DNA of 64,000 nucleotides from an uncultured Candidatus Berkelbacteria bacterium. GTDB taxonomy: Bacteria > Patescibacteriota > UBA1384 > UBA12157 > JAENIV01. The notes under the pieces are model-generated. The model made no database searches. It saw nothing but the letters and a program-made list of their open reading frames with translations, and was not told where the DNA came from. The stretch is taken from positions 734,131-798,130 of the forward strand of contig OY969116.1 in NCBI GenBank assembly GCA_963698075.1, read 5' to 3'. Below are positions 1,462 to 30,756 of this stretch, piece by piece. Every line of letters begins with the position of its first letter. Positions within the stretch are counted from its first letter, which is position 1. The position numbers and the translations under genes were made by a program.

Positions 1462-1539
1462 TGTATATCTTGACATTTTAATATAAATATGGTATGATGT
1501 CAATAGTGACGACATATAATCGTCAACATCAGGAGTAGG
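1462..1539 (+). promoter_or_regulatory. sigma70-like promoter of TrmB paralog 1 (TTGACA 1470-1475, 17 bp, TATGAT 1493-1498) with palindromes TTGACAT..ATGTCAA and TGACGAcatataatCGTCA, RBS AGGAG
   Basis: Hexamers and inverted repeats read directly upstream of ATG 1540. Confidence 0.4.
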
Positions 1540-2307
1540 ATGGACATCAAATCATCATTAGAGCAAATTGGACTTCGAAAAAGACAAATTGATATTTACC
1601 TTGCTCTTTTGCAAATGGGCGAGGCAACTGTGCAAGAGATCGCTAATAAAACCAAAGTTAAACGAACTACCGTTTATAGTATTTTAGATGTTTTAATCGC
1701 CAATGGTTTAGCCACTTTTATTGAAAAAGAAGGCCACCGAACTTACTTTGCCGAGAACCCAAAAAAAGTTATTTTATATTTTAAAAACCAAGAGCAGGAA
1801 TTAAAAACCAAATTAAATAAATTTAGTGAGATAATCCCCGAACTTTCTTCGATTTATAATATTCAAGCTACCAAACCAAAAATTCGTTTTTACGAAGGCG
1901 TTGAGGGCTTAAAACAAGTTTTTGAAGAAACTTTAACGATTAAGCCACACGAAGAAATTTTGGCGATTGCCACGGCGGCTTTGATCCACGAGGTCCTTGG
2001 CGATGAATGGGTCAACAATTATTTAACCCGCCGCGTCGGCGGGAAAATCAAACAGCGGGCGATTGTTGAAGATTCGGCCTGGGGTAGAGAACATCAAAAA
2101 AATGATAAAAAAGAAAATCGGGTCACTCGCTTAGTGCCCAAAGAAAAATTTCCGTTTTCCAATGAGGTCAATATTTTTGGCAATAAAGTCATGATCGCCT
2201 CATTCAAAGATCAAATCGGAGTAATAATCGAGAGTGCCGATGTGGCCAGGACCCAAAGGGCGATATTTGAACTGGCGTGGCTGGGAGCCGATAAGTACAG
2301 TAAATAG
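1540..2307 (+). CDS. TrmB-family transcriptional regulator (wHTH N-term + TrmB C-domain), paralog 1
   Basis: N-terminal LEQIGL..IYLALLQMGEATVQEIA..TTVYSILDVLIANGL wHTH; paralogous to ORFs at 23916, 25751, 29992. Confidence 0.8.
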   Translation: MDIKSSLEQIGLRKRQIDIYLALLQMGEATVQEIANKTKVKRTTVYSILDVLIANGLATFIEKEGHRTYFAENPKKVILYFKNQEQELKTKLNKFSEIIPELSSIYNIQATKPKIRFYEGVEGLKQVFEETLTIKPHEEILAIATAALIHEVLGDEWVNNYLTRRVGGKIKQRAIVEDSAWGREHQKNDKKENRVTRLVPKEKFPFSNEVNIFGNKVMIASFKDQIGVIIESADVARTQRAIFELAWLGADKYSK

Positions 2308-2601
2308 TATTTGTATATGGTTATTAGTGATTAGTATAAGATAAAGATAAGGGAAAGGCGGCCTGATGGCCGCCTTTGAAATAGACGGTATTACAGGTTC
2401 TAGAAACGGTTCCAACTTCCAATCTTGGAGAAGGGCGCCGAGATGAAGGGCGGCAGCAAAGGGACCAATGCCCCCCAGAACGTATTCATCGTGAGTTGAT
2501 TCGCAGTGCGGCTTTATTAGCTTGAGGACTTGTTCGGCTTTGGGGATGCTAACTCCGGCTTGGGCGTAAGTCAGACCTTTCTCTGGTGGTTGCTGGCTCA
2601 T
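2200..2601 (-). pseudogene. remnant of PurM/AIR-synthase-superfamily gene (N-terminal fragment only)
   Basis: Translation GLTYAQAGVSIPKAEQVLKLIKPHCESTHDEYVLGGIGPFAAALHL matches the PurM-like N-terminal motif (LTYKDAGVDID...GGFGGLF) but diverges after ~70 aa; high-GC (2378-2610) patch; frame runs through the TrmB terminator hairpin into the TrmB gene 3' end. Confidence 0.4.
2355..2378 (+). terminator. hairpin AAAGGCGGCC-tgat-GGCCGCCTTTG downstream of TrmB paralog 1
   Basis: perfect 10-bp stem read directly; weak T-tail. Confidence 0.4.
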
Positions 2602-2707
2602 CCTCATCTCCTCGGACTTCAGCGCTATTTCATAAATATTATCTTTAGATTCAAAAGTCAAGAAAAATTTGACAAGAAGGGATATTTTTCCTCAAAATGA
2701 ACTCGAG

Positions 2708-3583
2708 ATGAACAAATTAATTCTTTGTATTGATTTGGATGAATGGTATCATGGTCGTTGGGCAACCGGATCAAAAAGGTCACACTGGCAAAACACCGAG
2801 GAGTTGTTTAAGGAATATTATCAATCCGATAGGCCTGCCGGGGAAATTATTAGACCGACCCAAGATATTCTTGAAATCTTGGGTAAAGAAAAAATTAAGG
2901 CCACTTTTTTTATTCTTGGGGAGGTTGCCCAATGGTATCCAAAACTTATCAAAGAAATTGCCAAAGAGGGTCATGAGATTGCCTGCCATGGTTTACATCA
3001 TGAGGATTTATCCTTAAAATCAAAAAGCAAGTTTATCCGGGAGCTCCGAGAAACTCGCCAAATTCTTGAGGATTTGTCAGGTCAAAAAATAATCGGTTTT
3101 AGGGCGCCAAACCTAATCGTCACCGATTGGTTGGCCCCGGTGCTTAAAGCGGAAAAATTTAGCTACGATTCCTCTGTTTGTCCGGCCAGAGCCTTTGGGG
3201 GCAAATATCAAAACCAGGCCAATATTCAACCCAATCCTTATCGGGTTGGTCAAACACTTTTAAAAAAAGGTAATTCTGGGCTTTTCGAAATCCCCATTCC
3301 CACTTTTCCGATCCTCAAACTCCCTGGCGCCGTCTCGATTGCCACGCGCATCTTTGGTTTAACTTGGACGAAAATTACTCTCAATCAAGCTTTAAAAACC
3401 GGTGCTACCTGTTATTATGTCCACCCCTATGAATTCAATCGTCCTCCGAAAGTGCCAATGACTTATCATGAGAAAATCTTTTTCAGACGCTCTGGCCCTT
3501 GGATGAGAAAGGCTTTTAGCAAAATCTTAGCCGACTACCGTTCAAGAATTACCTCGGCCAAGAACTATTTAGAAATATTTTAA
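2708..3583 (+). CDS. polysaccharide deacetylase (CE4/NodB-homology) family protein
   Basis: Motifs LILCIDLDEW (Asp-Asp motif 1) and ACHGLHHEDL (H-x-x-x-H motif 2), GFRAP; alternative TTG start at 2669. Confidence 0.75.
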   Translation: MNKLILCIDLDEWYHGRWATGSKRSHWQNTEELFKEYYQSDRPAGEIIRPTQDILEILGKEKIKATFFILGEVAQWYPKLIKEIAKEGHEIACHGLHHEDLSLKSKSKFIRELRETRQILEDLSGQKIIGFRAPNLIVTDWLAPVLKAEKFSYDSSVCPARAFGGKYQNQANIQPNPYRVGQTLLKKGNSGLFEIPIPTFPILKLPGAVSIATRIFGLTWTKITLNQALKTGATCYYVHPYEFNRPPKVPMTYHEKIFFRRSGPWMRKAFSKILADYRSRITSAKNYLEIF

Positions 3584-3588
3584 AGAAA

Positions 3589-4263
3589 ATGCCCCCAAAA
3601 ATTCCTGAATCAGAATTAGTCAAAAAATATTACAATGGCTGGGCCAGTAATTATAATTTAGCCCTGGAAGAAGAACACGAAAAAAATGTTCGGCAAAAAC
3701 TGATTAATTGGCTGTTTCAAAGAAAAAAACTTTTAGCTGAAAGGGATCAAGCGATTATTAGGGCCTGTCAAAGATTTTCTCTCAAAAACAAAAAAATTCT
3801 TGATGTTGGTTGCGGCACCGGTCAAAATAGTTTTGTCCTGGCCCGTTTGGGAGCCAAAGTCATTGGCTACGATTTTTCGGCCAAACTCGTCAAATTTTGC
3901 CGGACTAAAGCCAAAATGTTAGGTCTCGAAGATCGCGTTCACTTTGAAGTCAGAGATTTAACCAAGGATCGTCTGCCCCCAAGTGATCTGATTTTATGCT
4001 CAGCCGTGATTGAATTCTATCAAGATGTTCAGCCGATTTTTAAAAAATTTGCCCTTTCTGCCAAAGAGGCCATCATCATCGCTGACGCTCGTTTTCGTTG
4101 GCCAAGGTCGCCGCTGAGGATGATTTTGGGTCGGCTGAAAAACTTTCCGGTTTACTTCCACCAGCCGGATAAAATCAAAGCGATCGCTAAAAAATCCGGT
4201 TTTAAATGCACTTATCTTAAAATTACTCAAATCGCCCGAGTGTTTGTTTTTGAAAAAGCCTAA
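3589..4263 (+). CDS. class I SAM-dependent methyltransferase
   Basis: LDVGCGTGQNSFVLARLGAKVIGYDFS glycine-rich SAM-binding motif. Confidence 0.75.
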   Translation: MPPKIPESELVKKYYNGWASNYNLALEEEHEKNVRQKLINWLFQRKKLLAERDQAIIRACQRFSLKNKKILDVGCGTGQNSFVLARLGAKVIGYDFSAKLVKFCRTKAKMLGLEDRVHFEVRDLTKDRLPPSDLILCSAVIEFYQDVQPIFKKFALSAKEAIIIADARFRWPRSPLRMILGRLKNFPVYFHQPDKIKAIAKKSGFKCTYLKITQIARVFVFEKA

Positions 4264-4299
4264 AGATAGAAAAAATTCTTGATATGTTATACTAAAACT

Positions 4300-15523: not shown

Positions 15524-15608
15524 CGTAATAAATTTGTGAACAAATTTAAACGTGGCTGAGACGTTTAAATCTATTGATTTATTACGTCTCGCCAAAATTA
15601 AAAAATAT

Positions 15609-16457
15609 ATGAAATTTTCTTTCAAATTAAAAAAACGTTTGGGGATTACCGAACTTCAGAAAAACACTCGCCAATTGATCGAAATTCTTTCGGAAAATTA
15701 CGTCAAGGAAAATCTCTTTCAAAATCCTAAATATCAAAACCCAAAAAAACTCAACCGCTTTGAATTTCAGGTTTTTTCCCAAAACGGTGAAGACGGCATT
15801 ATCGAAGAAATTTTTAAGCGTATTGGCACAACAAATAAGTTTTTTGTTGAGTTTGGCGCTGCCAATGGTCTTTGGAACAATACCACCCACCTTCTTATTA
15901 AAGATTGGAAGGGTTTATGGATTGAGGGTGATGAGGAATGTATTGCTGAGATTAAGACCAAGTTCGCTCGTCTTATTGATAAGAAAAAATTAATTATTCG
16001 AAAAGACTATGTGACTCCAGAGAATGTTGAAGATTTATTTAAAGAAGCCCGGGTTCTCCAGGATTTTGACCTTTGCTCCATTGATATTGACGGCAATGAC
16101 TACTGGGTTTGGCAGGCGATCCGAGAATTTAAGCCCCGCGTCATGACAATCGAATACAACTCTTTATTTCGTCCGGAGACCAAATGGGTGATGAAATACA
16201 ACCCCAAACATTTCTGGAATCAAACTTGCTATGCTGGCGCCAGCCTAAAGTCACTCGAAATATTAGGAGCCCAAAAAGGCTATAGGCTGGTTGCCTGCGA
16301 CTTCCTTGGTGTCAATGCCTTTTTCGTCAGGAAAGATTTAGTCAAAGATAAATTCCTCTCTCCATTCACTGCCGAGAATCATTACGAGCCGCCCCGCTAT
16401 TTTCTTTCGCGATCGCTTGGCCACCCCCGCGATTTCGGCGATTTTGAAAATATCTAA
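15609..16457 (+). CDS. hypothetical protein (possible polysaccharide-modifying enzyme)
   Basis: ORF with FSQNGEDGIIEEIF and DIDGNDYWV motifs; ATG 15609 chosen, GTG 15552 alternative overlaps tRNA fragment. Confidence 0.45.
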   Translation: MKFSFKLKKRLGITELQKNTRQLIEILSENYVKENLFQNPKYQNPKKLNRFEFQVFSQNGEDGIIEEIFKRIGTTNKFFVEFGAANGLWNNTTHLLIKDWKGLWIEGDEECIAEIKTKFARLIDKKKLIIRKDYVTPENVEDLFKEARVLQDFDLCSIDIDGNDYWVWQAIREFKPRVMTIEYNSLFRPETKWVMKYNPKHFWNQTCYAGASLKSLEILGAQKGYRLVACDFLGVNAFFVRKDLVKDKFLSPFTAENHYEPPRYFLSRSLGHPRDFGDFENI

Positions 16458-17410: not shown

Positions 17411-17483
17411 GTCCCCATAGCTCAGCGGATAGAGCGTCAGCTTGCGGAGCTGAAGGTCGGGTGTTCAAATCACCCTGGGGACG
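17411..17483 (+). tRNA. tRNA-Arg (anticodon GCG)
   Basis: acceptor GTCCCCA/TGGGGAC, anticodon stem TCAGC/GCTGA loop TTGCGGA, T-loop GGGTGTTCAAATCACCC. Confidence 0.75.
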
Positions 17484-17493
17484 CTATTTTATT

Positions 17494-18954
17494 ATGTCTT
17501 ATACCCGCCGCGTGGCCTTCAATACTATCGTTCAAGTCATTGGTAAGGTTCTCACCACCTTGATTTCTTTATTTTTGGTTGCCGCGCTTACCCGTTACTT
17601 GGGCGTTTCCGGTTATGGCCAATACACCACGATTTTTGCCTTCACTCAATTTTTTGCCGTTTTTGCCGATTTCGGCTTTTTTTGGTTTTTGGTTCGTGAG
17701 ATTTCCAAACCCGACGCGCCGCAAGAGAAGATTTTTAACAATGTCCTCACTTTTCGCACTTTTGTGGCATTGGTGGTTTTTGTTATTGCCTTTATCGCGG
17801 CGTTATTCATTCCTCAATATCATGATTTCCGTTTCGGCATCGGGATTATTGCCGCCGCCTCTTTCTGGCAAGTTCTCAATGGTACTTATGTCGGTATTTT
17901 CCAGAATCGTCTGAGAATGGACAAAGCGGCTTTGACTGATGTCTTAGGCCGTCTTGTGATTTTGTTAATAGTGCTTTGGCAAATCAAAACTGGTACTAAC
18001 TTAAACAGAATCCTCTGGTCATATTTTGCCGGCAACATGGTTAATTTCCTCGCCAGCGCCTTTTTGGGACGGATTTATCTTCGCTTTCGACCGGCTTTCG
18101 ATTTTGGCTACTGGCGACGGATAATCACCGAATGCTTTCCGATTTTTTTGGTCTCAATCTTGAGTCTGATATCTTTCAAAATCGACACGGTCATGCTTTC
18201 GCTTTTAAAAAGTTCAACCGATGTCGGCATTTACGGACCGCCCTACAAAGTCATTGAAATTTTCATCCTTTTGCCAGGGATTTTTATGGGCAATGTTTTT
18301 CCGATTTTGACCAGTTACATTTATTCGCAAGACAAGCGACTTTTTGGCGCCTTTCAAAAATCTTTCGACTTTTTAATCATTGCCGCTTTGCCCCTGGTTG
18401 CTGCCGTCATTGTTTTGGCCGAAAGGGTTATCAGGATAGTTGCTGGCCAGGATTTTGTCAGCGCCCATACCATTGGGCCAGTTTTGGGCCTCCCGGCTAC
18501 TTCAGTTCTGGCTTTACAAATTCTCATCATTGCCGTCGCCATCGCTTATATTTCCCACCTTTTCAATTACATGGTCATTGCCTTGGGTAAACAAGCTAAG
18601 CTCATTGGTCCCAATATAATTTTTGTGATTTTTAATGTGGCCTTAAACTTATTTTTAATCCCAAGATTCTCTTATATCGGGGCCGCCCTGGTCACGGTTT
18701 TAACCGAGATAGTCGTGGTTTCTCTCTACTTTAGGGTTTTGCGTCGCTATCTGGTAATTAAGATTAACCTGGACATCTTGCCAAAAACGATTCTTGCGGC
18801 TATAATCTTGGGTCTGACCCTTTACTGGCTAAGATTTTTAAGTCTCTGGTATTTGGTGCCAATCGGGATAGTCATCTATTCGATTGCTTTATTCTTAGTC
18901 AGAGGCATATCCAAAGAAATGATCCTCGCCGTTATTAAGCCAAAAAACTCATGA
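17494..18954 (+). CDS. oligosaccharide flippase (Wzx-like, MOP superfamily) / polysaccharide biosynthesis protein
   Basis: ~487 aa, 12-14 TM, typical Wzx N-terminus; ATG 17494 just after tRNA-Arg. Confidence 0.7.
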   Translation: MSYTRRVAFNTIVQVIGKVLTTLISLFLVAALTRYLGVSGYGQYTTIFAFTQFFAVFADFGFFWFLVREISKPDAPQEKIFNNVLTFRTFVALVVFVIAFIAALFIPQYHDFRFGIGIIAAASFWQVLNGTYVGIFQNRLRMDKAALTDVLGRLVILLIVLWQIKTGTNLNRILWSYFAGNMVNFLASAFLGRIYLRFRPAFDFGYWRRIITECFPIFLVSILSLISFKIDTVMLSLLKSSTDVGIYGPPYKVIEIFILLPGIFMGNVFPILTSYIYSQDKRLFGAFQKSFDFLIIAALPLVAAVIVLAERVIRIVAGQDFVSAHTIGPVLGLPATSVLALQILIIAVAIAYISHLFNYMVIALGKQAKLIGPNIIFVIFNVALNLFLIPRFSYIGAALVTVLTEIVVVSLYFRVLRRYLVIKINLDILPKTILAAIILGLTLYWLRFLSLWYLVPIGIVIYSIALFLVRGISKEMILAVIKPKNS

Positions 18955-20027
18955 AAATAGCGATAGATACCCAGACAACTTTAGGTCAAAAATCAGGGTT
19001 TGGTTTTTACGTCAAAAATTTGGTCGAGGCCCTGGCTAAGGTTGATCACCAGAATGAATATTTTTTGATTCGCCCCAACACCGAAAAAGATTTTTCGACT
19101 CCTCAAAGATTGCTCTGGGATCAGGTAATTTTTCCTAATCGCGCCCGGCAAAAAAAAGTTGATTTACTCCATCAGCCCTGTTTTTCGGCCCCCTTGTTAT
19201 ATCCAGGCCGCGTGATTGTTACTTGTCACGATCTTATTTCCATCTTTTTCCCGGCAAATCTTCCCCTGGCTTCCCGTCTTTTTTACTCTCAATGGGAACC
19301 ATTTTCTTATCGCAAGGCCTCAAAAATTATCGCAATATCGGAGCACACCAAAAAGGATTTAATGGCTTTTTTGAAGATTCCCGAAGAAAAAATCAGCGTT
19401 ATCCAATTGGCGGCTTCAAGAGATTTTCGACCCGTTAAATCGAAGAAAACTTTAAAAAAAATTCAAAAGAAGTATCGCACCGGGCCAAATTATATTTTGG
19501 ATGTCGGTACCCTAGAACCGCGCAAGAATTTGTCTTTCTTGGTTCGTGCCTACGCCCTGGCGGTTCGCGAGGGAGCTGACGTCAATTTGGTGATTACTGG
19601 TAAAAAAGGTTGGTATTTTGAAGGATTATTTAAATTAGTAGCCGAGCTCAATTTAAAAAATAAAATCATCTTCACCGGCTATGTTGAGGAGAAGAACCTC
19701 CCTGCCCTTTATTCCGGCGCCAAAGCCTTTGTTTTCCCCAGTCTTTATGAAGGTTTTGGTCTGCCGCCGCTGGAGGCGATGGCCTGTGGCGCACCCGTAA
19801 TTTCTTCGAGTACCTCCTCCATGCCCGAGGTCATTGGCCAAGCAGGAATCCTTATTTCGCCCAAAGATGAACGGGTCTGGGCCCAAAATATTCTCAAAAT
19901 CCTCCGTGACAAAGGTTTAGCCCGGACTTTAAGCCAAATGGGTTTAAGACAGGCGAAGAAGTTTTCGTGGGAAGAGACCGCCCGAAAAACCATCGAAGTC
20001 TATAAGGAGGTTATAAATTATACGTGA
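18951..20027 (+). CDS. glycosyltransferase family 4
   Basis: [20 protein letters not shown] motif. Confidence 0.8.
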
Positions 20028-20063
20028 TACGTATATACGTGTAACTTTTAACTTTTAACACTT

Positions 20064-21209
20064 ATGAAAATTGCCATCGACGCTTCGAGGGCCATTAATG
20101 AGAAAGCAGGGATTGGTCGTTACACTCGCGAGCTGGTCAAAAAAATGATTGAAGTCGATAAAAAAGCCTGCCTGCCGGCAGGCAGGAATCAGTATCTTCT
20201 GATTTTCAGTTTTTTCCGCCAAAGCCCTCAAAAAGAAAAACTCATCAAAACCTTCGAAAATTCTAATGCTAAAATAAAAATTTTAAAAATCCCGGGTGCA
20301 CTCAAAGAAAAGGCCTGGCAATGGCGCCTATCATGGTATGAGAAGTTTTTGGAAGGCGCCGATGTTTTCTTTGCTCCCTCATTTTTTGAGGTTAATTTTG
20401 GTCTGAAGATTCCTCAAGTAGTGACGATTCATGATCTTTCAACCTTCATTTTCCCCAGCCACCGGGGGGAAAATGTCTCCCAAAGATTATCCAAACGAGC
20501 TAAGGCAGCGGCCAAAATTGCCAAAAAAGTCATCTCTGTATCGGAGTCAACCGCTCAAGACACCATTAAATATTTAAATGTCAACCAAACTAAAATCAAG
20601 GTCATCTATCCGGGAATCACTGATTTGCCAACCCCGGTCAAAAATTTACCGGCGTCTTTGAAGCCCCAATCTTACATTCTTTTTGTCGGTACGATTGAAC
20701 CAAGAAAAAACTTAATCGGTCTTTTTAAGGCCTATGCTCTTTTGCCGCCAAGATTGCAAGAAAAATATCCGTTAGTAATTGTTGGCGCCGAAGGTTGGCA
20801 GACCGGTGAGATTTTTGCCACTATTCGGCTGCTCAATTTAGAAGATAAGGTGAAGTTTTTAGGTTTGGTGAGCGATAACATTTTGACCAAGCTCTATCAA
20901 GAGGCCGCGGTTTTTGTTTACCCTTCGTTATATGAGGGTTTTGGCCTGCCGGTTTTGGAAGCGCTCTCTTTTGGGACGCCGGTGGTTACCTCAAATATCT
21001 CTTCTTTGCCAGAAGTCGCTGGCCCAGCCGCCCTCCTGGTGGAGCCCCAAGAGCCCAAGTCAATTGCTAGAGGCCTACAGCGGCTTTTAGAGGGCAAATT
21101 TGAGCGTGAAAACTTGCGAAAAAAGGCCCAAAAACAGGTTCAAAAATTCTCCTGGGACCGGGCGGCCAAAGAGACTATCAAAGTTCTTGAGGAGGTAGGT
21201 CGTGGCTAA
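20064..21209 (+). CDS. glycosyltransferase family 4
   Basis: EGFGLPVLEALSFGTPVVTS motif. Confidence 0.8.
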   Translation: MKIAIDASRAINEKAGIGRYTRELVKKMIEVDKKACLPAGRNQYLLIFSFFRQSPQKEKLIKTFENSNAKIKILKIPGALKEKAWQWRLSWYEKFLEGADVFFAPSFFEVNFGLKIPQVVTIHDLSTFIFPSHRGENVSQRLSKRAKAAAKIAKKVISVSESTAQDTIKYLNVNQTKIKVIYPGITDLPTPVKNLPASLKPQSYILFVGTIEPRKNLIGLFKAYALLPPRLQEKYPLVIVGAEGWQTGEIFATIRLLNLEDKVKFLGLVSDNILTKLYQEAAVFVYPSLYEGFGLPVLEALSFGTPVVTSNISSLPEVAGPAALLVEPQEPKSIARGLQRLLEGKFERENLRKKAQKQVQKFSWDRAAKETIKVLEEVGRG

Positions 21210-22275
21210 ACCTGTCCTTGCCATTCTAACTGAATCTATCAGATACGATAATCAGCATGCACTTGAGTATTTCTCTAAAATCAAACCGGTCCATTTTTAT
21301 AAAACGGCGCCTTATGGGGATTTGACGAAGAACGATCTGAAAGACGCGGTTAAATACCATAATTTCGCCGACTTAGAAAAGAAGTTACTGACTTTAAAGC
21401 CCGATATTATTCAAGGTGCTGAACCATATGGATCGAAAATTCAGTTACGGCTTTGTCATATCGCCTGGCGGGTTTCGCGCCAGCTTAATATTCCGCTCAT
21501 TTTCGGCATGCTCGAAAACCGGCCGGTTAAAGAGAGGTTTGGCAAATTATTGGCGCCAATGCTTAAAAAAGTTTTGGCGGCTTATGCGAAACAGGCAAGG
21601 CTAATATTTTATCTAAATTCCGGGGCGAAGCGGAATCTCCTGGAAGTGGGGGCTGATCCATCGAAACTGAAGAAATTACTATATGGCATCTGGGGCGTTG
21701 ATAGCTCTGTTTTTAAACCACTAAAACCTAAAACCTTGAACCTAAAACCTCACATTTTATTTGCCGGCAGAATTGATGAAGCCAAGGGAATTCCGTATTT
21801 GCTTGAGGCGTGGAGCATGATTTGGCGGGATTATCCTGATATTGAGTTGGTCATGGCAGGCAAAGGGGAGATGGAAGATAGAGTAAAAAGGGAAAAGGGC
21901 ATAAGGTATATAGGCATGGTCAAAAATCAGGATTTGCCGGCCTTATTTAATCAGGCCTTGTTTACAGTTTATCCATCAGTGACTCTAAAGCGCTGGGAAG
22001 AGCAGGTAGGGATGGTTAATTTGCAGTCGCTTTCTTGCGGCACGCCAGTTATCACCACCAAATCCGGCGCCATTCCCGAATATATCAATAGTAAAGTGGG
22101 GATTTTGGTACCAGAGCGAGATTCAAAAGCGCTGGCCGAGGCAATGCGGAAATTATTATCGGATACTAAATATCGCCAAAGATTGGGAGCTGCCGGCCGG
22201 CAATATATCTTAGAGAACTTTGATGCTAAAAAGACGATAGAGAAGGTAGAAAATCTCCTTATAGGACTCTTATAA
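21202..22275 (+). CDS. GT4-like glycosyltransferase (divergent)
   Basis: GT-B C-terminal domain region FAGRIDEAKGIPYLLEAW...CGTPVITT. Confidence 0.6.
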   Translation: MAKPVLAILTESIRYDNQHALEYFSKIKPVHFYKTAPYGDLTKNDLKDAVKYHNFADLEKKLLTLKPDIIQGAEPYGSKIQLRLCHIAWRVSRQLNIPLIFGMLENRPVKERFGKLLAPMLKKVLAAYAKQARLIFYLNSGAKRNLLEVGADPSKLKKLLYGIWGVDSSVFKPLKPKTLNLKPHILFAGRIDEAKGIPYLLEAWSMIWRDYPDIELVMAGKGEMEDRVKREKGIRYIGMVKNQDLPALFNQALFTVYPSVTLKRWEEQVGMVNLQSLSCGTPVITTKSGAIPEYINSKVGILVPERDSKALAEAMRKLLSDTKYRQRLGAAGRQYILENFDAKKTIEKVENLLIGLL

Positions 22276-22291
22276 ATCAATCATCCATTCA

Positions 22292-22317
22292 AACATCGAT
22301 TAAAATTTAAGTTATGT
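22292..22317. repeat. AT-rich palindrome family copy 2 (AACATCGATTAAAATTTAAGTTATGT)
   Basis: read directly, at junction between GT4 operon and high-GC islet. Confidence 0.45.
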
Positions 22318-22440
22318 GTGCTAGAGACTTCTTTATATTTTATAATATTTTTTATTTTTAACCTGAAAAATATACTACTTTTTCTACTCGAGTAATCAAA
22401 GTGATATAGTTTTCCCTGTTAGACTATTAATTTGTAAACA

Positions 22441-22480
22441 AAAAGCCCCGCCGGTTTTCACCTTTGGGGCTTGGTGGTGG
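22441..22480 (-). terminator. rho-independent terminator AGCCCC-N-GGGGCT with T-run on minus strand
   Basis: hairpin AGCCCCGCCGGTTTTCACCTTTGGGGCT followed (minus) by TTTTTGTTT. Confidence 0.5.
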
Positions 22481-22508
22481 TGCCGTTGTGCCTGTTGGGG
22501 CGCGAGGC

Positions 22509-22871
22509 CTAGTAATACATCTTGGCATACTTGATCTCCAGAAGTAGTTCCTCCAGCGCTTTAATTCGCGGCTTGTCATCGGGGTAGTAGCGTTTCTCTG
22601 CTGCCAAAAGGGCTTCGACGGGAGCGGGAGCTTCGAGAATTTGGCAGTTAATGCGGATTTTCTCCTTATCTGTTTTGTCCTTTGATTCCTTGGCGCTGGA
22701 AATTCTGGCCTCATCGAACGCCCGATAACATTTGGCGTACTCCTCGGGCGTATCTTCCCCGATTCCGACGTAGGCGTATGCCGCCATTGCCCGAAAGACA
22801 GCTCCTGTGAGCTTGAGTCCGGTCTGCCAATCGGGGGACAGCACTCTAAACACGTCTTCCCATCCAGGCAT
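22509..22871 (-). CDS. hypothetical protein (high-GC islet cassette gene)
   Basis: 120-aa ORF, RBS AAAGGAG, GC ~52%. Confidence 0.5.
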   Translation of the reverse strand: MPGWEDVFRVLSPDWQTGLKLTGAVFRAMAAYAYVGIGEDTPEEYAKCYRAFDEARISSAKESKDKTDKEKIRINCQILEAPAPVEALLAAEKRYYPDDKPRIKALEELLLEIKYAKMYY

Positions 22872-22873
22872 CT

Positions 22874-22989
22874 GTTTTCTCCTTTCTCAACGCTCCAATC
22901 CCGTTAGATAACGATGTATCCAATGGGACTCGAGGTTGACCATGTTAAATCTGAAAACTATTTAACAGGGTTGAGCCCCGCCCTCACGG
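22874..22989 (-). repeat. cassette-boundary element copy B (GGAGCGTTGAGAAAG ... CTCGAGGTTGACC ... hairpin AGCCCCGCCCTCACGGACGGGGCT)
   Basis: read directly; shares arms with copies A, C, E. Confidence 0.45.
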
Positions 22990-23250
22990 ACGGGGCTGGT
23001 TGAAATTGCGGCGGATAAGCCGCAGTGCTTTGCCCTCTAACTGCTTGGTTTGCCTCCGTGTTTTGCCGAGCAGCCGACCCGCTTCCTCGAGAGTCATGAG
23101 GTGGGCGGAGAGGCCGAAGCGATAGCTCAGAACCATCCGTTCAGACACATCAAGGGCGGCGTAGGCTTGGCGGACTCGTTCTTGGTCTTCGGCGGTCACA
23201 TCCTTCAGCTCTTTGCCTGTTAGGGCTCGCGCCAAATGCCTGAAATCCAT
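22984..23250 (-). CDS. sigma-70 region 4-like HTH small protein (88 aa)
   Basis: LDVSERMVLSYRFGLSAHLMTLEEAGRLLGKTRRQTKQLEGKALRLIRR matches sigma70 region 4 (LSERER.VL.LRFGL...TLEEIG..LGVTRERIRQIE.KALRKLR); RBS CTAGGAGG. Confidence 0.55.
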   Translation of the reverse strand: MDFRHLARALTGKELKDVTAEDQERVRQAYAALDVSERMVLSYRFGLSAHLMTLEEAGRLLGKTRRQTKQLEGKALRLIRRNFNQPRP

Positions 23251-23269
23251 GAGTTCCTCCTAGGAGATA

Positions 23270-23341
23270 GATTCAACTCTTGAACTCCCATATCTCTATA
23301 GAAGCTCGAGGTTGAGCCGGAAAGTCACCCAACCCTCCGGC
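23270..23341 (-). repeat. cassette-boundary element copy C (GATTCAACTCTTGAACTC ... GCTCGAGGTTGAGCC + hairpin GCCGGA-N-TCCGGC)
   Basis: read directly. Confidence 0.45.
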
Positions 23342-23462
23342 TATTTTGATCTTACCCATGGCTGTTTGAACGGGTTTGATCGGTTGTCGTGTGGTTGCCT
23401 TCTGGTTCTTGCCCAGGCGCCCCACACAGGCTGAGCCGTTCTCGGCTAGCGAACCGCTAGAG

Positions 23463-23759
23463 CTACTCCTTCACCAGGAATGCTACGGCTTGGATGATAA
23501 ATCCTGATGGTTGGAGCCAGTCTAGAGTGAAGTAGCCGCGATTTGGTTCGGGATACTCCCTAACCTTGACGTCCTTCATCTTGGTGGGTTTATCCTGGCC
23601 AGGAAAAGTAATCTCCTTGGCCTCCAAATCGGCGACGTACTCCTTTCCCGCAGGGAGGGTATGTTCGAGAACGTAGAGGGTATCTGGCGTTCTCGCATAC
23701 TGGCCACTGCGGGCGGTAGTGGTAAGGCGGATCGGTATGGTCTCACCTCCTTTCAGCAC
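23463..23759 (-). CDS. hypothetical protein (cassette gene)
   Basis: 98-aa ORF in same orientation as neighbours, GC-rich. Confidence 0.45.
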   Translation of the reverse strand: MLKGGETIPIRLTTTARSGQYARTPDTLYVLEHTLPAGKEYVADLEAKEITFPGQDKPTKMKDVKVREYPEPNRGYFTLDWLQPSGFIIQAVAFLVKE

Positions 23760-23915
23760 AGGTTGTCAAAAACAGGTTAACAGGTATAACTTATCTTCAG
23801 AACGTAATATTATAGCACATTCCGACTGATTTGTCAAGACTTTTTACATATATATTGACAAAATAAAAGATTTGATATATAATATAATTAATAAATGTAA
23901 AAAAAATTTACAACA

Positions 23916-24662
23916 ATGAATCTAGAGAAACTTTTAGAAGAATTTGGGTTAAATGAGAAAGAGGCAAAAACTTACCTTGCCTGTTTGGAATTGGGGCCAT
24001 CGAAAATTCATGACATTGCTGACTTATCGGGCGTTGGTCGAGTGAATACCTACTATATTATTGAGAAATTAATCCAGCATGGTTTGGTCAGCCGCACTTT
24101 CAAAAAAGAGAAAATGCTTTTTGTGGCGGAAGAGCCGGAAGTTTTAGCGGAAATTGCCCAACGCCGGGCCAAGCGTTTTAAAAATTTATTACCCAATCTT
24201 AAAGCCCTCTCAAAAGGAGAGAACAAACCCTCGGTCAGGTATTACGAAGGCGAAGAAGGAATCAAAGCGTTATATGAAGATTCTTTAACCAGTAAAGAAA
24301 AAATATATGCTTGGAATAGCGCCGAAAATCTTGAAGCAGTCATGCCGGAATATTTTCACGATTATTACAAGCGCCGGGCAGCCAAAAATATCTTTATTAC
24401 AGGTATTTTGAATGATTCTCCTGAAGCGCGGGCATACCAAAAGCAGGATAAAGAGTTAAAACGCGAAATTCGACTGGTGCCCGAGAATCGAATGAATATT
24501 AAGCCTGAGTGCTATATTTATGAAAATAAGGTCTCTTTTATGTCTTTACGGGAGAAAATTGGGGTGATGATTGAGTCTAAAGATATCGCCGATGCGATGA
24601 AACGGCTATATGAACTTGCTTGGGAAAGAGCTGGGGAATATCAAAAAAAGGTCTCGAAGTAA
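23916..24662 (+). CDS. TrmB-family transcriptional regulator, paralog 2
   Basis: LEEFGLNEKEAKTYLACLELGPSKIHDIADLSGVGRVNTYYIIEKLIQHGLV; promoter TTGACA-16-TATAAT with TTGTCAA/TTGACAA inverted repeat at 23831-23862. Confidence 0.8.
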   Translation: MNLEKLLEEFGLNEKEAKTYLACLELGPSKIHDIADLSGVGRVNTYYIIEKLIQHGLVSRTFKKEKMLFVAEEPEVLAEIAQRRAKRFKNLLPNLKALSKGENKPSVRYYEGEEGIKALYEDSLTSKEKIYAWNSAENLEAVMPEYFHDYYKRRAAKNIFITGILNDSPEARAYQKQDKELKREIRLVPENRMNIKPECYIYENKVSFMSLREKIGVMIESKDIADAMKRLYELAWERAGEYQKKVSK

Positions 24663-24669
24663 AACAAAA

Positions 24670-24732
24670 CCCCGTTAGATAACTCTGTATCTAACGGGGC
24701 AGGAGCCCCGCAGCCGATATGGCTTTGGGGCT
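24670..24732. terminator. tandem hairpins CCCCGTTAGATA-actctg-TATCTAACGGGG and AGCCCCG-N-GGGGCT between convergent genes
   Basis: perfect 12-bp palindrome arms read directly. Confidence 0.5.
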
Positions 24733-24741
24733 TGGGGCGAT

Positions 24742-25098
24742 CTAATCGACATTAGGCGTCTGGATTACAGCAACAATAACTGCTGCTGGAATCCACATCG
24801 GTACAGGTTCATCTTCCCAGTCGTATCCCGGATGATAGGGGAACCAAGCGTCTCTCAGAAAAGCTCCTTTTTCATTCAAGCTTGCAAGGTTTCCTCTAAC
24901 CACCAGGTGTTCCTCCAGATCATCTTCCGGCTGTTTTTTCTGGTTCCGATAAGTACCGCGTGGTAACTTGATGTTGGTGATGATATGGAACGTTGGTCCC
25001 TCTGGGGAGTTCTTGAAAGGGCCAACATGGCCAAGTAGCCAGTACCAATTCTTGATGTCATCCCAGATTTTCTTAATCTTTCTCCCTAGCTTCTTCAT
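24742..25098 (-). CDS. hypothetical protein (cassette gene)
   Basis: start MKKLGRKIKK with RBS AAGGGG; longer ORF to 25176 unlikely. Confidence 0.45.
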   Translation of the reverse strand: MKKLGRKIKKIWDDIKNWYWLLGHVGPFKNSPEGPTFHIITNIKLPRGTYRNQKKQPEDDLEEHLVVRGNLASLNEKGAFLRDAWFPYHPGYDWEDEPVPMWIPAAVIVAVIQTPNVD

Positions 25099-25131
25099 TG
25101 TTCCCCTTGCGTTTAAGGGCCGCCGCCCGTA

Positions 25132-25205
25132 GATTGTCAACTCTCGAGCCATCCAAGTCAAACCTGAATGGCTCAAGGTTGACCCCGCCCCTGATTGGGG
25201 CGGGG
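25132..25205 (-). repeat. cassette-boundary element copy E (GATTGTCAACTCTCGAGCC ... GGCTCAAGGTTGACC + hairpin CCCCGCCCC-tgatt-GGGGCGGGG)
   Basis: read directly; arms pair as ~15-bp imperfect stem with 20-nt loop. Confidence 0.5.
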
Positions 25206-25211
25206 TGAGTG

Positions 25212-25577
25212 TTACTTTTTCCTCCAGTGCTCAATGTCAAGCTGGCGAATGTAGACTGTACACTGACCCCTGCCAGCCGGCTGTTCGATGATGACGACGA
25301 TGTCATCCCCATCCACAGCCCCTCGGTAGACCAGGAAGTCATACTCGAAGACTTCATCTCCTCGTTTAGTGAAAACCCAGAAACACACAACAGGAGGTTT
25401 GAAATGGACCAGGAGATGTGAGCCACTCCAGTCCCTACTAGAGCGGCTCTCCTCAGGGATCAATTCCCAGGTTGCCTGGGAAAGATCCGCCAAGAATTGG
25501 GACCTCTGACAGATCAACTCTGCCCACTCCTCGGCAGTCTCTGGCCTCGGATAGCCGATTTTGCGAACTTCCATTTT
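25212..25577 (-). CDS. hypothetical protein (cassette gene)
   Basis: start MEVRKIG with RBS AAGGAGAGG; tool ORF extends to 25670. Confidence 0.45.
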   Translation of the reverse strand, partial: KMEVRKIGYPRPETAEEWAELICQRSQFLADLSQATWELIPEESRSSRDWSGSHLLVHFKPPVVCFWVFTKRGDEVFEYDFLVYRGAVDGDDIVVIIEQPAGRGQCTVYIRQLDIEHWRKK

Positions 25578-25750
25578 CCTCTCCTTGAGTTTTAAGCTTC
25601 GTTCCAATGGGCGATACCTGTTATCAGGTATGCTTCCCATCGTGAACGTCCTATTATAGCATATATGCAAGCAAATGTCAAGTCTGTATAGACATATATT
25701 ATGGACTATTGACCAAATATAATAAATAGTGTATAATAGAATTAAACAAT

Positions 25751-26509
25751 ATGAATAATGAAGAGTTAGTAAAATTGTTGGCAGAATTAGGAATTACCGG
25801 CAATGAGGCGAAGGTTTATCTCGCCTGCTTGGAGCTGGGGCCGACAACAATTACTAAAATCGCCCGTAAAGCGGAGGTTGAGCGGGCAACGGTTTATGCG
25901 ATTTTGGATCGTTTGAAAGAAAAAGGATTAGTAGGCATCGAAGTCAAAGATTATGACCGGCATGTTCAAGTTGAGACACCCGATAAATTATTGGTTCTTG
26001 CGCGGCACAAAAAGAGGGCCATCGAAGAAAAAGAACATCAATTTAAAGAAATTTTGCCAGATTTGTTGGCTACGGTTAACCAGCGCGGCAAACAGCCAAA
26101 AGTGCGGTTTTATGAGGGGAAAGAGCAATTTATGGCTGTTTTTGATCAAGCATTAGATGAAACCAAAGAAAAAATGTATTTTTTTGGCGCGGCTTCGCTT
26201 TTTGTTGACCTTATTTCTTATCAGTTTGAAAAAGAATGGATTAAAAGAAGGGTACGTAAGAAAATCCATATTGATATTTTGGTCCACAAAACCCCATTAA
26301 CCGAGAGATTTAAAATTGACGACGAGAAAGAAATGCGAACCACTCGATTTTTGCCATCGAATATGAAATTCGAGGCCTCATATCTTTTATGGGGTAATAA
26401 AATTGCCCTCTGGAACCCCGTCGTTCCTTTGGCAATAGTTATCGAGGACGAAATTATCGTCAAAATGTTTAAGGAGATGTTTTTCGGGTTGTGGGCAAAG
26501 GCAAAATAA
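25751..26509 (+). CDS. TrmB-family transcriptional regulator, paralog 3
   Basis: LAELGITGNEAKVYLACLELGPTTITKIARKAEVERATVYAILDRLKEKGLV; promoter TTGACC-18-TATAAT. Confidence 0.75.
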   Translation: MNNEELVKLLAELGITGNEAKVYLACLELGPTTITKIARKAEVERATVYAILDRLKEKGLVGIEVKDYDRHVQVETPDKLLVLARHKKRAIEEKEHQFKEILPDLLATVNQRGKQPKVRFYEGKEQFMAVFDQALDETKEKMYFFGAASLFVDLISYQFEKEWIKRRVRKKIHIDILVHKTPLTERFKIDDEKEMRTTRFLPSNMKFEASYLLWGNKIALWNPVVPLAIVIEDEIIVKMFKEMFFGLWAKAK

Positions 26510-26673
26510 TATGTTAAATTAAAAAAAGAATATTAAAAATTGAAGGCCCATCCAGCGCTTAATCTCTTAGAGAATTAGATGATTATTTCTCTTCTCTAAA
26601 TAGATATCGCTTAGGAGGGCTTCCTGTTCTTTGCTTCCGTGTGAGGAGCGCAAAAACAGGAGCGGAGGGATTT

Positions 26674-28353: not shown

Positions 28354-28393
28354 GTTCTCGAAAAACTTCTCGACTACGCTCGAAGTAAACAAA

Positions 28394-28452
28394 AAGCCCC
28401 GCACCCGCTTGTCTCGAGTGAAATCGAGAGATTGGGTTTGGGGCTGGTTAGG
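28394..28452 (-). terminator. imperfect hairpin AAGCCCCGCACCC...GGGTTTGGGGCT downstream of methyltransferase
   Basis: read directly; shares AGCCCCGC arm with other islet terminators. Confidence 0.35.
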
Positions 28453-28457
28453 CTTCT

Positions 28458-29192
28458 TTATTTCCGGGCACAGACAACGTCATAGTTCGGCTCGTGGGCC
28501 AATTTAGGTTGCCAGATTCCGGTCGGCTGAAGACTTCGCAAGATCTCTACGAGCTCGTCTGCCGTCAGTAGGTAACAGATGGAATCACCGCAGAATTCCT
28601 GACCGTGGACCATCCCGGAACCTGAAATATAGCGCGCCCTTTTTTGCCAGTCGTGCTCGATGCGGCCGACAAGTTCAATGTCGGGCAAGCTTATTGTGAC
28701 CGCTCGGCTACCCAGAGCAATTTCTCCCTGAGAGACCGTGTCGAGATAAAGTATTCCGCCTGGCTTGAGCTGGCGATACATTATTCTGATGCTTTTTTCG
28801 ATCAGGATACTTATGGTGTCAGAGTCAAAATCGTGCTTTTCTTTGTCCCAACTATTCACGTAGGTGAGACTATTACCTCGGCAGATGACGGCATCAAAGG
28901 TCTCGCCCAGTCGGCCCAAATTCAGCCAGTTCATCAGAATGTAGGTTAGGTTAGTATGGGCATGTTCTTGTTCAGCCATTGCGATCATCTCTGGCTCGGC
29001 ATCGATTCCAATGCCACAAAACCCCCGTCTGGCTAAGCCTTCCAGAAAGTAGCCATTGCCGCAGCCGCACTCGAGAATCCTCTGCGCCCCATTCTGGCGG
29101 AGAAAAGCAGCTAATTCAGCGATGAAATCCTCGCCGTACATTGCCTCCGAAAGCGCTGACCACTCCTGGGAAAGGGTCATTGATGGTCTCAT
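28458..29192 (-). CDS. class I SAM-dependent methyltransferase
   Basis: RILECGCGNGYFLEGLARRGF SAM-binding motif; GC ~52%. Confidence 0.75.
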   Translation of the reverse strand: MRPSMTLSQEWSALSEAMYGEDFIAELAAFLRQNGAQRILECGCGNGYFLEGLARRGFCGIGIDAEPEMIAMAEQEHAHTNLTYILMNWLNLGRLGETFDAVICRGNSLTYVNSWDKEKHDFDSDTISILIEKSIRIMYRQLKPGGILYLDTVSQGEIALGSRAVTISLPDIELVGRIEHDWQKRARYISGSGMVHGQEFCGDSICYLLTADELVEILRSLQPTGIWQPKLAHEPNYDVVCARK

Positions 29193-29193
29193 C

Positions 29194-29844
29194 TTATATC
29201 TCCTTATATCCGATTATTCTTATGCCGCCAGCCGGCTTGTCCTCTGGCAAGAAGCCGGGGATGATCCAGAGGAATTTTCCGCCACCGGCTACCCGGATGT
29301 AAAAAGCCAAGGTTGGATCAGTCAACAGTATTTCATCCGTCGGGAATGGGCCACCGGCCAAATAACTGTCAAGCGCGGCTTTCAGTTCCGGATTTTGTCT
29401 GATCTGTTCTTCTTTCGCCACGCTGCCATTGTAGGAGGATGGTCGGCCGTCAACGACAACGTAAGTGCAGCCGTCCTTCTTTGCTCTTTCAAACATCGCT
29501 CTAATCAGCAAAGAAGCGGCTTTGCCTCCCCGGTAGTTGGGGATGACATCAAGGTTATAGACAAAAACAGTGTTATATCTTTCTGGCCGAGGCTGATGAG
29601 AGAATTCTTGGAAAGTTTTGGGAAAGCCTTCGAAATCATTGGGGGAGAAGTTGGCATAGGAAAAGCAAATCTTCCCGATCAGTTTTCCGGCCATTTCAGC
29701 CCCAAGCATGATATGCCCCAGATGCAACCTTAGCCGGACGGACTCCTCACTAGCCTGGATAGCGGGGATAAAGGACAGTCTCTCGGTATGCATGATTCTT
29801 TCGATGTCCTTAAGACCGAGGGTGACGATTGTAAAGGTGTTCAC
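29194..29844 (-). CDS. GNAT-family acetyltransferase-like protein
   Basis: VIPNYRGGKAASLLIRAMFERAKKDGCTYV resembles GNAT motif A; start/stop overlap with downstream methyltransferase. Confidence 0.5.
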   Translation of the reverse strand: MNTFTIVTLGLKDIERIMHTERLSFIPAIQASEESVRLRLHLGHIMLGAEMAGKLIGKICFSYANFSPNDFEGFPKTFQEFSHQPRPERYNTVFVYNLDVIPNYRGGKAASLLIRAMFERAKKDGCTYVVVDGRPSSYNGSVAKEEQIRQNPELKAALDSYLAGGPFPTDEILLTDPTLAFYIRVAGGGKFLWIIPGFLPEDKPAGGIRIIGYKEI

Positions 29845-29991
29845 TCTGATCCTCCTTGCCAGAGCGTAATTAACAGATTATCGGTGGATATCTATAAATA
29901 GTCAATCAATTTAACAAATATAATAGTATTTACAAAAGAATAGTAATCTGATATATTTGACTATGTTGTTAAAAGTTTTAACAAAACAATT

Positions 29992-30756
29992 ATGAATCTT
30001 GAAGAAGTTTTAGAAGAATATGGGCTTACCGAAAGACAAGCCAAGGTCTACTTGGCTGCTTTGGAATTGGGCGAATCCGACGTTTCGGATCTTGCCCAGA
30101 AAGCCCAAATCAGAAGAGCAGGCGCTTATTATTTAAGCGAATCATTGGTTAAAGACGGTTTGTTTTATAAAACTAAAAAAGCCAATAAACTCTATTATTC
30201 CGCCGTTGAACCAAAAAATCTATTAGAGCAAGCCAAACGCAAAAAACAAATTATTGAAGAAAATTTCTCAGAACTTCAAGCTTTAGCAAGGTTGTCAATC
30301 AAAAAACCCAACATCCATATTTATGAAGGAATTGAGGGCATAAAAACTGCCTATAAAAGAACTTTAACTAAGAAAAATGCCAAAATGTATGCCTTTTCGC
30401 CTTATGCGACCGCCCAAAAAACCGCCCAATTTCACGGTCGGGAATATCTCAAATGGGGTTTAGAATATATTAAACAAAGAGCCAAAAAAAACATTTTTGT
30501 TTATGACATTGCCGAAGACTCCTCAGAGGCGCGGGAAAGAAAAAAACGTGATCAAGAAGAGTTGCGAGAAACCCGTTTAGTGCCTAAGGAAAAGTTTCCT
30601 TTTACGAACGAAATTGATATTTTCCAAAATTTGGTCATTATAATCTCGTATAAAGAGTTATTGGCAATAATAATCGAATCTCAAGATATCGCTTTTACTT
30701 TAAAGACCATTTTCAACCTCGCCTGGGAGGCGGCAGCTAATTATAGTAAAAAGTAA
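29992..30756 (+). CDS. TrmB-family transcriptional regulator, paralog 4
   Basis: LEEYGLTERQAKVYLAALELGESDVSDLAQKAQIRRAGAYYLSESLVKDGL; C-terminus near-identical in pattern to paralog 1. Confidence 0.8.
   Translation: MNLEEVLEEYGLTERQAKVYLAALELGESDVSDLAQKAQIRRAGAYYLSESLVKDGLFYKTKKANKLYYSAVEPKNLLEQAKRKKQIIEENFSELQALARLSIKKPNIHIYEGIEGIKTAYKRTLTKKNAKMYAFSPYATAQKTAQFHGREYLKWGLEYIKQRAKKNIFVYDIAEDSSEARERKKRDQEELRETRLVPKEKFPFTNEIDIFQNLVIIISYKELLAIIIESQDIAFTLKTIFNLAWEAAANYSKK

Follow-up and report, generated by a model that had tools for sequence, protein, structure and literature searches.

TrmBL2-like paralogs in a patescibacterial genome as probable autoregulated repressors of divergently transcribed partner genes

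Introduction

In divergons of the TetR/TetA and MarR types, the regulator gene is divergent from its target, operators lie over both promoters and the regulator represses itself. Archaeal TrmB and TrmBL1 bind palindromes in promoters, e.g., the TGM motif TATCAC-N5-GTGATA. For TrmBL1 (Tgr), autoregulation has been proposed (PMC4158304), and TrmBL2 (TK0471/PF0496 of the Thermococcales), which is devoid of the C-terminal sugar-binding part of TrmB, represses when bound to a promoter (PMC4158304, PMC3031468). The review of the TrmB family deals with archaeal members only, and full-text literature searches found no paper linking TrmB to Patescibacteria or to bacteria of the Candidate Phyla Radiation (CPR). 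Patescibacteria possess very few recognisable transcription factors. The present work deals with a stretch of 64,000 nucleotides (nt) of contig OY969116.1 (positions 734,131 to 798,130), hereafter the window, and with four TrmB-family paralogs encoded therein, namely P1, P2, P3 and P4, which are probably autoregulated local repressors of their divergent partner genes, a reading to which we give a probability of roughly two-thirds.

With TetR/TetA and MarR-type divergons these loci share the divergent layout, the short intergenic region common to both genes and predicted operators at both promoters, but the regulators belong to an unrelated DNA-binding family and carry a PLD-like, putatively sensory domain. 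With archaeal TrmB/TrmBL1 they share the PF01978 winged helix and its DNA-contacting tyrosine (Y50); unlike those proteins of ~340 amino acids (aa) with a PF11495 domain, however, they comprise 248-255 aa without detectable PF11495, their predicted operators differ in sequence and spacing, their predicted promoters are of the sigma-70 instead of the TBP/TFB type, and no link to sugar-transport genes is seen. TrmBL2 is the best full-length match in both sequence and fold, with a comparable length (~250-264 aa) and the same domain order, yet identity to it is only 18-20% and, contrary to TrmBL2, there are here at least five divergent paralogs with bacterial promoters, each with its own recognition helix and its own conserved palindromic sites.

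Results

Family assignment and architecture of the paralogs

That four TrmB-family paralogs are present, as claimed in an earlier note made from the DNA letters alone, is borne out by Pfam, all four proteins matching PF01978 with 44-58 bits, i.e., above the gathering cut-off of 25.6. They align end to end with pairwise identities of 29-40%; tblastn finds no further TrmB copy in the window, and a fifth paralog lies ~3 kb upstream of the window start on a Logan contig (L001) overlapping the left window end. A profile built from P1-P4 matches TrmB (3qph, 8e-9) over the N-terminal ~150 residues only (first 148 of 3qph) and TrmBL2 over its full length (5box, 2.6e-5; 5bpd and 5bqt also full length). 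The AlphaFold2 model of P2 (predicted local distance difference test score 94) shows a winged helix-turn-helix (wHTH), a long helix (residues 75-98) and an alpha/beta domain. In a Foldseek search of the PDB with this model, the best match is TrmBL2 (E ~4e-13, ~265 columns), followed by TrmB and then by PLD-like domains; the template-modelling score against TrmBL2 is just 0.40 because the domain orientation differs. PF11495, the sugar-binding effector part of TrmB, gives no match in P1-P4 at E<=0.01, the score with the NCBIfam TrmB equivalogs, 36 bits, is far below their cut-off of 600, and in PHROGs, NCBIfam and PADLOC the paralogs match at the wHTH level only, e.g., Csa3/CasR. The architecture is therefore of the TrmBL2 type: the winged helix at the N-terminus is followed by a long helix and, at the C-terminus, by a PLD-like domain, the sugar-binding subdomain known from TrmB being absent, and P1-P4 are thus not sugar-sensing TrmB proteins. 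By likeness to TrmB and TrmBL2, the long helix would be the dimerisation helix.

In the recognition helix, a tyrosine (Y46 in P2 numbering) is conserved in at least 90% of 75 homologues and aligns with Y50 of 3qph, a residue reported as important for DNA recognition in TrmB of P. furiosus (PMC4158304). The recognition helix and wing are otherwise kept inside each group of orthologues and differ between groups (Table 1).

Divergent promoters and predicted operators

The first 40 kb of the window were scanned for sigma-70-like promoters, scored out of 12 against the consensus hexamers. Ten sites reach at least 11/12, seven of them upstream of P1-P3, including all three 12/12 sites, and two 10/12 sites precede P4, in agreement with the near-consensus promoters announced by the earlier note. 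At each of the four paralogs a back-to-back pair of divergent promoters shares the intergenic region. P3 is nearly leaderless, with 13 nt from the end of the -10 to the ATG. Family-wide, a promoter of at least 10/12 occurs within 200 nt upstream in 57 of 98 homologues, compared with ~6% of random windows; spacings between -10 and ATG cluster at 27-49 nt, and the upstream neighbour is divergent in 74 of 92 cases.

The upstream regions were aligned with those of orthologous loci in relatives, namely L002 (79% protein identity), L003 (57%) and L004 (53%) for P1; L084 (67%), L092 and L082 (66%) for P2; L086 (82%), L087 (72%), L088 (73%) and L089 (57%) for P3; and L091 (79%), L092 (63%) and L093 (53%) for P4. 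Apart from promoter hexamers, the best-kept blocks are two sites per module with a common paralog-specific half-site, designated O_up for the predicted operator overlapping the divergent -35 and O_down for the one at the regulator's own -10/transcription start region. Arm identity to the window sequence is 0.83-1.0, against 0.53-0.66 at other intergenic positions, between loci whose proteins are 53-82% identical, the TAGACA arm of P3 (0.62) being the exception; for P2 O_down, arm identity is 0.94-1.0 in four orthologues compared with 0.66 in the rest of the region. P1 O_down is kept in L004 and L003 and has one degenerate arm in L002. In the 64 kb, exact palindromes are found only at the promoter of their own paralog (<=0.06 expected): that of P1 O_down has a sole exact match (0.00 expected), and P4 O_down has no other match even at <=2 mismatches (0.58 expected). 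The right arm of O_down recurs between the two -35 boxes, with P=0.004 (P1), 0.026 (P2) and 0.012 (P4) in a generous shuffle. Many distant family members present a palindrome directly after the -10, often TGT...ACA. Predicted operators that overlap the promoters and are conserved in orthologues are hence a property of all four loci, weakest for P3. The proposal of autoregulation via distinct operators, put forward in the earlier note, gains from this footprinting and from the group-specific recognition helices, though mostly through sites other than those it had quoted.

A scan of the window with the palindromes, suggested earlier as a means to predict regulons, returned no exact or one-mismatch operator copies beyond the paralogs' own intergenic regions. 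At 16310-16329, inside the open reading frame (ORF) 15552-16457, TGTCAATGCCTTTTTCGTCA comes near the P1 upstream site TGTCAAGTCTTTTTCGTCA with two mismatches, which is at chance level. Upstream of the fifth paralog (L001 ~1700-1820), two perfect palindromes with half-site TCGTA, namely TCGTAA-N5-TTACGA and the 28-nt AATTTAATTCGTAC|GTACGAATTAAATT, lie downstream of a 12/12 promoter in a layout unlike that of P1-P4.

Table 1. Features of the TrmB-like loci, in window positions except for the rows on relatives.
Feature	Positions	Strand	Details
P1, TrmB-like paralog 1	1540-2307	+	255 aa; PF01978 E=8.8e-14; group recognition helix/wing KRTTVYSILDVLI
P2, TrmB-like paralog 2	23916-24662	+	248 aa; PF01978 E=5.7e-13; group recognition helix/wing GRVNTYYIIEKLI
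P3, TrmB-like paralog 3	25751-26509	+	252 aa; PF01978 E=8.5e-16; group recognition helix/wing ERATVYAILDRLK
P4, TrmB-like paralog 4	29992-30756	+	254 aa; PF01978 E=2e-11; group recognition helix/wing RRAGAYYLSESLV
P1 own promoter	1470-1498	+	TTGACA-17-TATGAT; 11/12
P1 divergent promoter	1406-1434	-	TTGACA-17-TATACT; 11/12; faces 191-aa gene
P1 extra promoter-like site	1475-1503	-	overlaps P1 own promoter
P2 own promoter	23855-23883	+	12/12
P2 divergent promoter	23809-23837	-	12/12
P3 own promoter	25709-25737	+	TTGACC-17-TATAAT; 11/12
P3 divergent promoter	25653-25681	-	12/12
P4 own promoter	29929-29957	+	TTTACA-17-TATATT; 10/12
P4 divergent promoter	29877-29905	-	TTGACT-17-GATAAT; 10/12; faces GNAT-methyltransferase operon
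P1 O_up (putative)	1429-1447		TGTCAA-N7-TCGTCA; overlaps divergent -35; right arm TCGTCA identical in L002, L004
P1 O_down (putative)	1507-1525		TGACGA-N7-TCGTCA; between -10 and ribosome-binding site
P2 O_up (putative)	23832-23848		TGTCAA-N5-TTTACA; TTACAT block kept in L084, L092, L082
P2 O_down (putative)	23896-23912		TGTAAA-N5-TTTACA; sole exact window match; palindrome absent from the earlier note
P3 O_up (putative)	25676-25694		TGTCAAGTCTGTATAGACA, TGT-N13-ACA; TGT-N13-AC(A/G) in 5/5 orthologues; includes the ATGTC..GACAT quoted earlier
P3 O_down (putative)	25730-25748		TGTATAATAGAATTAAACA, TGT-N13-ACA; over -10 and transcription start; TGT and ACA invariant in 5/5 orthologues
P4 O_up (putative)	29900-29916		AGTCAAT-N3-TTTAACA; block GTCAAT(A/C)(A/T)ATTT(A/G)AC kept in L091, L092, L093
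P4 O_down (putative)	29967-29983		TGTTAAA-N3-TTTAACA; contains GTTAAAAgTTTTAAC quoted earlier; kept in L091, L092
P1 partner	660-1235	-	191 aa, apparent signal peptide; GC 0.57, third-position GC (GC3) 0.71; no family matches
P2 partner operon	22427-23759	-	ORFs of 98 aa, 88 aa (sigma-70 region 4-like) and 120 aa; GC 0.52-0.58
P3 partner operon	24742-25574	-	orphan ORFs of 120 aa and 118 aa, Shine-Dalgarno sites, structured leader; GC 0.48-0.51
P4 partner operon	28458-29844	-	GNAT-like 29194-29844 and S-adenosylmethionine (SAM) methyltransferase 28458-29192 (Pfam); GC 0.50-0.51
Element A, window copies	574-629; 23268-23323	-	second copy intercistronic in P2 partner operon
Element A, relatives	L001 4508-4563, 369-423, 915-975; L002 2118-2173; L092 9318-9363		
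Terminator B, window copies	22433-22477; 24698-24740	-	first copy in P2 partner operon
Terminator B, relatives	L087 7213-7258; L092 6377-6423, 8914-8952; L086 5485-5526		

Proposed mechanism

In the mechanism proposed, a dimer would bind each predicted site through the group-specific recognition helix with its invariant tyrosine, the equivalent of TrmB Y50. Occupancy of O_down, a palindrome over ~+1 to +25 of the regulator transcript (over the -10 and start for P3), would repress the regulator's own promoter, i.e., negative autoregulation, and occupancy of O_up, with one arm being the divergent -35 and the other the specific half-site, would repress the partner promoter. The PLD-like domain is the likely sensor, where a ligand would relieve repression. 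With a spacing of 54-78 bp between O_up and O_down, bridging of the two sites by a tetramer (looping) is possible.

Divergent partner genes and GC contrast

A GC boundary does coincide with each paralog, as noted earlier, the 600 nt upstream having a GC fraction of 0.50-0.56 compared with 0.37-0.40 in the gene. The divergent partner genes have 0.48-0.58 GC with a GC3 of 0.50-0.71, and their coding-type GC by codon position and Shine-Dalgarno sites point to coding islets. The GC-rich cargo had been placed immediately after the regulators, but the strongest islets lie upstream and are divergently transcribed; of the cargo genes then named, the PurM remnant (ORF 2200-2661) and the zinc ribbon (31761-32158) find no support in Pfam, and the methyltransferase and GNAT genes ascribed to P3 form instead the minus-strand divergent operon of P4. 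Most partners are orphans, without matches in Pfam, PHROG, NCBIfam or PADLOC, and for the 120-aa partner of P3 a search of 1.84 billion representatives gave no real homologue; an exception is the 88-aa ORF of the P2 partner operon, which resembles sigma-70 region 4, including that of phage and defence sigma factors.

The GC contrast is at least 0.12 at all four boundaries, a value reached by just 4.2% of window positions. It is also found in L001, L002, L082, L084, L086, L087, L088 and L092, and is missing in L089, L091 and L093. A family-wide contrast was rejected, the median difference over 74 divergent pairs being ~0; present in some relatives and absent across the family, the contrast is therefore a lineage feature. 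Stretches of higher GC (~0.47-0.52) elsewhere in the window carry genes for H+-PPase, GroEL, IMPDH and OMP decarboxylase, hence a genome that is compositionally heterogeneous in general.

At orthologous loci, the partner is a radical-SAM/SPASM gene (L002 and L003, for P1), a tRNA (L004) or an ornithine decarboxylase gene (L089). The GNAT-like and methyltransferase pair of P4 is divergent in L091 and L092 as well, with 40-57% identity versus 63-79% for the P4 regulator. Besides this pair and the radical-SAM pair of L002/L003, no homology was found among the partner proteins of orthologous loci. Genes for radical-SAM/SPASM or B12-binding radical-SAM proteins recur as divergent or nearby TrmB partners in L002, L003, L082 and L087, which hints at regulated peptide- or cofactor-modifying enzymes.

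Age, synteny and modularity

The nearest relatives of the window are metagenome-assembled genomes of Patescibacteria/CPR, so that the source organism is itself a member of the Patescibacteria. This is consistent with the rest of the window, which holds a cell-envelope glycan cluster (GT2, GT4, Polysacc_synt, Wzy_C, PMT_2, GtrA) together with H+-PPase, GroEL, EF-P, SSB and S6. Each paralog has orthologues elsewhere at 50-91% identity (51-81% overall for P2, 57-91% for P3 and 53-91% for P4) and is therefore ancient, not a recent acquisition.

Between two conserved flanks, namely Polysacc_synt followed by three GT4 genes (17461-22275) and two Wzy_C genes followed by PMT (32151-36544), lies a variable zone (~22.3-32.1 kb) that contains P2, P3 and P4 in the window, P2 only in L084, P3 only in L088, and P4 then P2 in L092; in L090, a cut contig, a P4 orthologue adjoins the right flank. 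P3 orthologues are also located near dnaA/dnaN/recF (L086, L087), and a P2 orthologue beside ychF (L082). In these comparisons, a TrmB gene, its promoters and the partner operon go together as one module, which is permuted, gained or lost in the variable zone. The downstream GH5-like gene and 340-aa protein gene are shuffled relative to the paralogs, and it is with the divergent operon upstream, not with the downstream genes, that a paralog is stably linked. Taken together with the orthologues, the synteny differences make the modules ancient yet positionally labile. The earlier suggestion of regulator-plus-cargo modules acquired repeatedly thus holds insofar as modules vary in presence, order and position among relatives, but the paralogs are ancient and the linked cargo is the divergent upstream operon, kept for P4 only.

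Recurrent non-coding elements

Two non-coding elements recur in the GC-rich operons (Table 1). Element A, of ~50 nt, pairs through TCAAC-CTCGA...TCGAG-A-GTTGA as its outer stem and encloses an inner hairpin with wobble or compensatory changes; every copy is oriented like the GC-rich partner operon, either between cistrons or on the 3' side, and Rfam has no match for it. Terminator B resembles a terminator, with the hairpin GCCCCAAAGGTGAAAACCTGCGGGGC ahead of a T-run, and is 97% identical, loop included, between genomes in which it ends non-homologous partner operons, which is unusual for a terminator. The leader of the P3 divergent transcript (25575-25646, minus strand) starts with GTTCACGATGGG and is also found in L086, L087 and L088; a 7-bp outer stem CGAUGGG/CCCAUUG encloses a hairpin that varies, and pairs covary in L086 and L087. 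The divergent leader of the fifth paralog (L001 ~1640-1680) is of the same type. Such a leader, placed ahead of orphan ORFs, may act as a cis-regulatory RNA. Known RNAs were considered for the GC islets and rejected, since Rfam at gathering score finds only three tRNAs in the window; permissive Rfam scans of 1-1600, 22200-25800 and 52500-53800 gave nothing credible. A third hairpin, CCCCGTTAGATA...TATCTAACGGGG, has three minus-strand copies in the window (~600-640, 24669-24700 and 53590-53630), one of them away from TrmB genes.

Discussion

The simplest reading is that of a set of autoregulated local repressors. P1-P4 would then act in a classical manner, as members of a new, uncharacterised branch, in bacteria, of a known family of regulators. 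Several points weigh against local repression. TrmBL2, the closest structure, is an abundant, largely non-specific single-copy chromatin protein. The P3 sites are the weakest of the four, with only the TGT/ACA triplets (six specified bases) and one site over an extended -10; in every O_up, a -35 hexamer makes up one arm and would be conserved in any case; and the orthologue sets are small (3-5 sequences) and phylogenetically non-independent. Partners of P1-P3 vary between orthologous loci, a fixed regulator-target logic being clear for P4 alone, and the GC contrast falls outside what a local repressor accounts for.

This last point is addressed by a further reading, rather unlikely as it stands, wherein the TrmBL2-like paralogs would be gatekeepers of a gene-cassette platform, with a non-coding chassis kept across genomes and GC-rich driven genes that are swapped or change fast. 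The chassis may consist of two consensus promoters, two operators, a structured leader, the intercistronic element A and the near-identical terminator B, and many of the driven genes may be orphans or encode secreted proteins. If so, the recurrent sharp GC break would be the trace of foreign genes, possibly from a host, that were imported again and again and kept under tight, inducible repression.

It is improbable that the repeats are incidental to back-to-back consensus promoters in AT-rich DNA, with the TrmB paralogs acting on unrelated targets elsewhere in the genome, although this does apply to part of the inverted repeats quoted in the earlier note. All of these are present, with small spacing errors, but TTGACAT (1470-1476) and ATGTCAA (1497-1503) at P1 are the -35 boxes of the plus-strand promoter and of the minus-strand site that overlaps it, while TTGTCAA (23831-23837) and TTGACAA (23855-23861) at P2, separated by N17 and not N18, are the opposed -35 boxes of two 12/12 promoters; these two of the five palindromes are nothing but opposed -35 hexamers. 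At P3, ATGTC (25675-25679) and GACAT (25691-25695) are separated by N11, the ATGTC arm being part of the divergent -35. The remaining two, TGACGA-N7-TCGTCA at P1 (1507-1525) and GTTAAAAgTTTTAAC at P4 (29968-29982), are no promoter elements. The -35 arm of every O_up would fit incidental repeats too, and AT-rich intergenic DNA is rich in short palindromes, several being expected at <=2 mismatches. Nonetheless, the arms TCGTCA, TTTACA and TTTAACA are no promoter elements, they occur twice per region at fixed spacing, the specific arms are the best-kept non-promoter positions among orthologues, and the exact palindromes are far rarer by expectation.

The paralogs acting as TrmBL2-like architectural proteins or xenogeneic silencers, which would coat GC-rich foreign DNA instead of binding discrete operators, is a decidedly improbable account. 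The fold closest to P1-P4 is that of a chromatin protein, and all four partners, plus many in relatives, are compositional outliers (GC3 0.5-0.7) and mostly orphans; however, known xenogeneic silencers target AT-rich, not GC-rich, DNA, and the GC contrast vanishes family-wide. The diverged paralogs, at least five in number, have recognition helices specific to each group and conserved sites to match, and the predicted specificity argues against non-specific coating of the TrmBL2 kind.

Little credence is given to the downstream palindromes being mRNA hairpins of the 5' untranslated region that affect stability or translation, rather than DNA operators. Those of P1, P2 and P4 do fall downstream of the -10 and ahead of the start codon, within the predicted 5' leader, and partner transcripts do carry conserved structures, namely element A and the leader hairpin with covariation. 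The arms are nevertheless kept in sequence without compensatory changes, complementarity being broken in L002 and L091, and recognition by a protein is therefore favoured over an RNA stem. In addition, the half-site recurs in the non-transcribed spacer between the -35 boxes, the P3 site overlaps the -10 itself, and the stems are short, AT-rich and weak.

Finally, that the modules are integrated mobile elements or prophage remnants, with the TrmB-like protein as a CI-like maintenance repressor and the small ORFs as early genes, is scarcely credible, for while the back-to-back promoters resemble a phage immunity region, the sigma-70 region 4-like protein is among the small orphan ORFs, a TrmB paralog is adjoined by an integrase gene in L082 and by a Bro-N gene in L087, and module position differs between relatives, the window is without integrase, transposase, structural or replication genes, the partners are without PHROG or PADLOC matches, a pattern scan of IMG/VR finds no TrmB relatives, the P4 partners are ordinary enzymes conserved with their regulator, and the regulators have a host-like low GC.

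Under local repression by P1-P4, each of the four or five regulators comes with a predicted promoter pair, two operators with their half-sites, a recognition helix and a likely target operon, and the ~250-aa TrmBL2-like family is suggested to be a general-purpose local repressor of Patescibacteria. If true, this would provide tools for inducible gene expression in those few CPR bacteria that can be grown in culture. The recurrent GC-rich, fast-evolving partners, which are located within the variable part of a cell-envelope glycan cluster, would be accessory genes under tight control and may have a bearing on episymbiotic life; GC-rich orphan partners with non-coding elements common to different genomes fall outside this picture.

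Other GC-rich orphans in the window

Two GC-rich orphans occur apart from TrmB genes. On the minus strand, 52893-53554 combines a low-GC regulator-like gene with a GC-rich orphan, in the order of an 82-aa low-GC ORF (53306-53554), a 12/12 promoter (53232-53203), a 95-aa GC-rich ORF (52893-53180) and a strong terminator (52850-52818). On the plus strand, an isolated 166-aa orphan ORF (38474-38974; GC 0.56, GC3 0.70, no family matches) sits in the glycan cluster and is followed by a 12-bp GC-rich terminator at 38993-39019.

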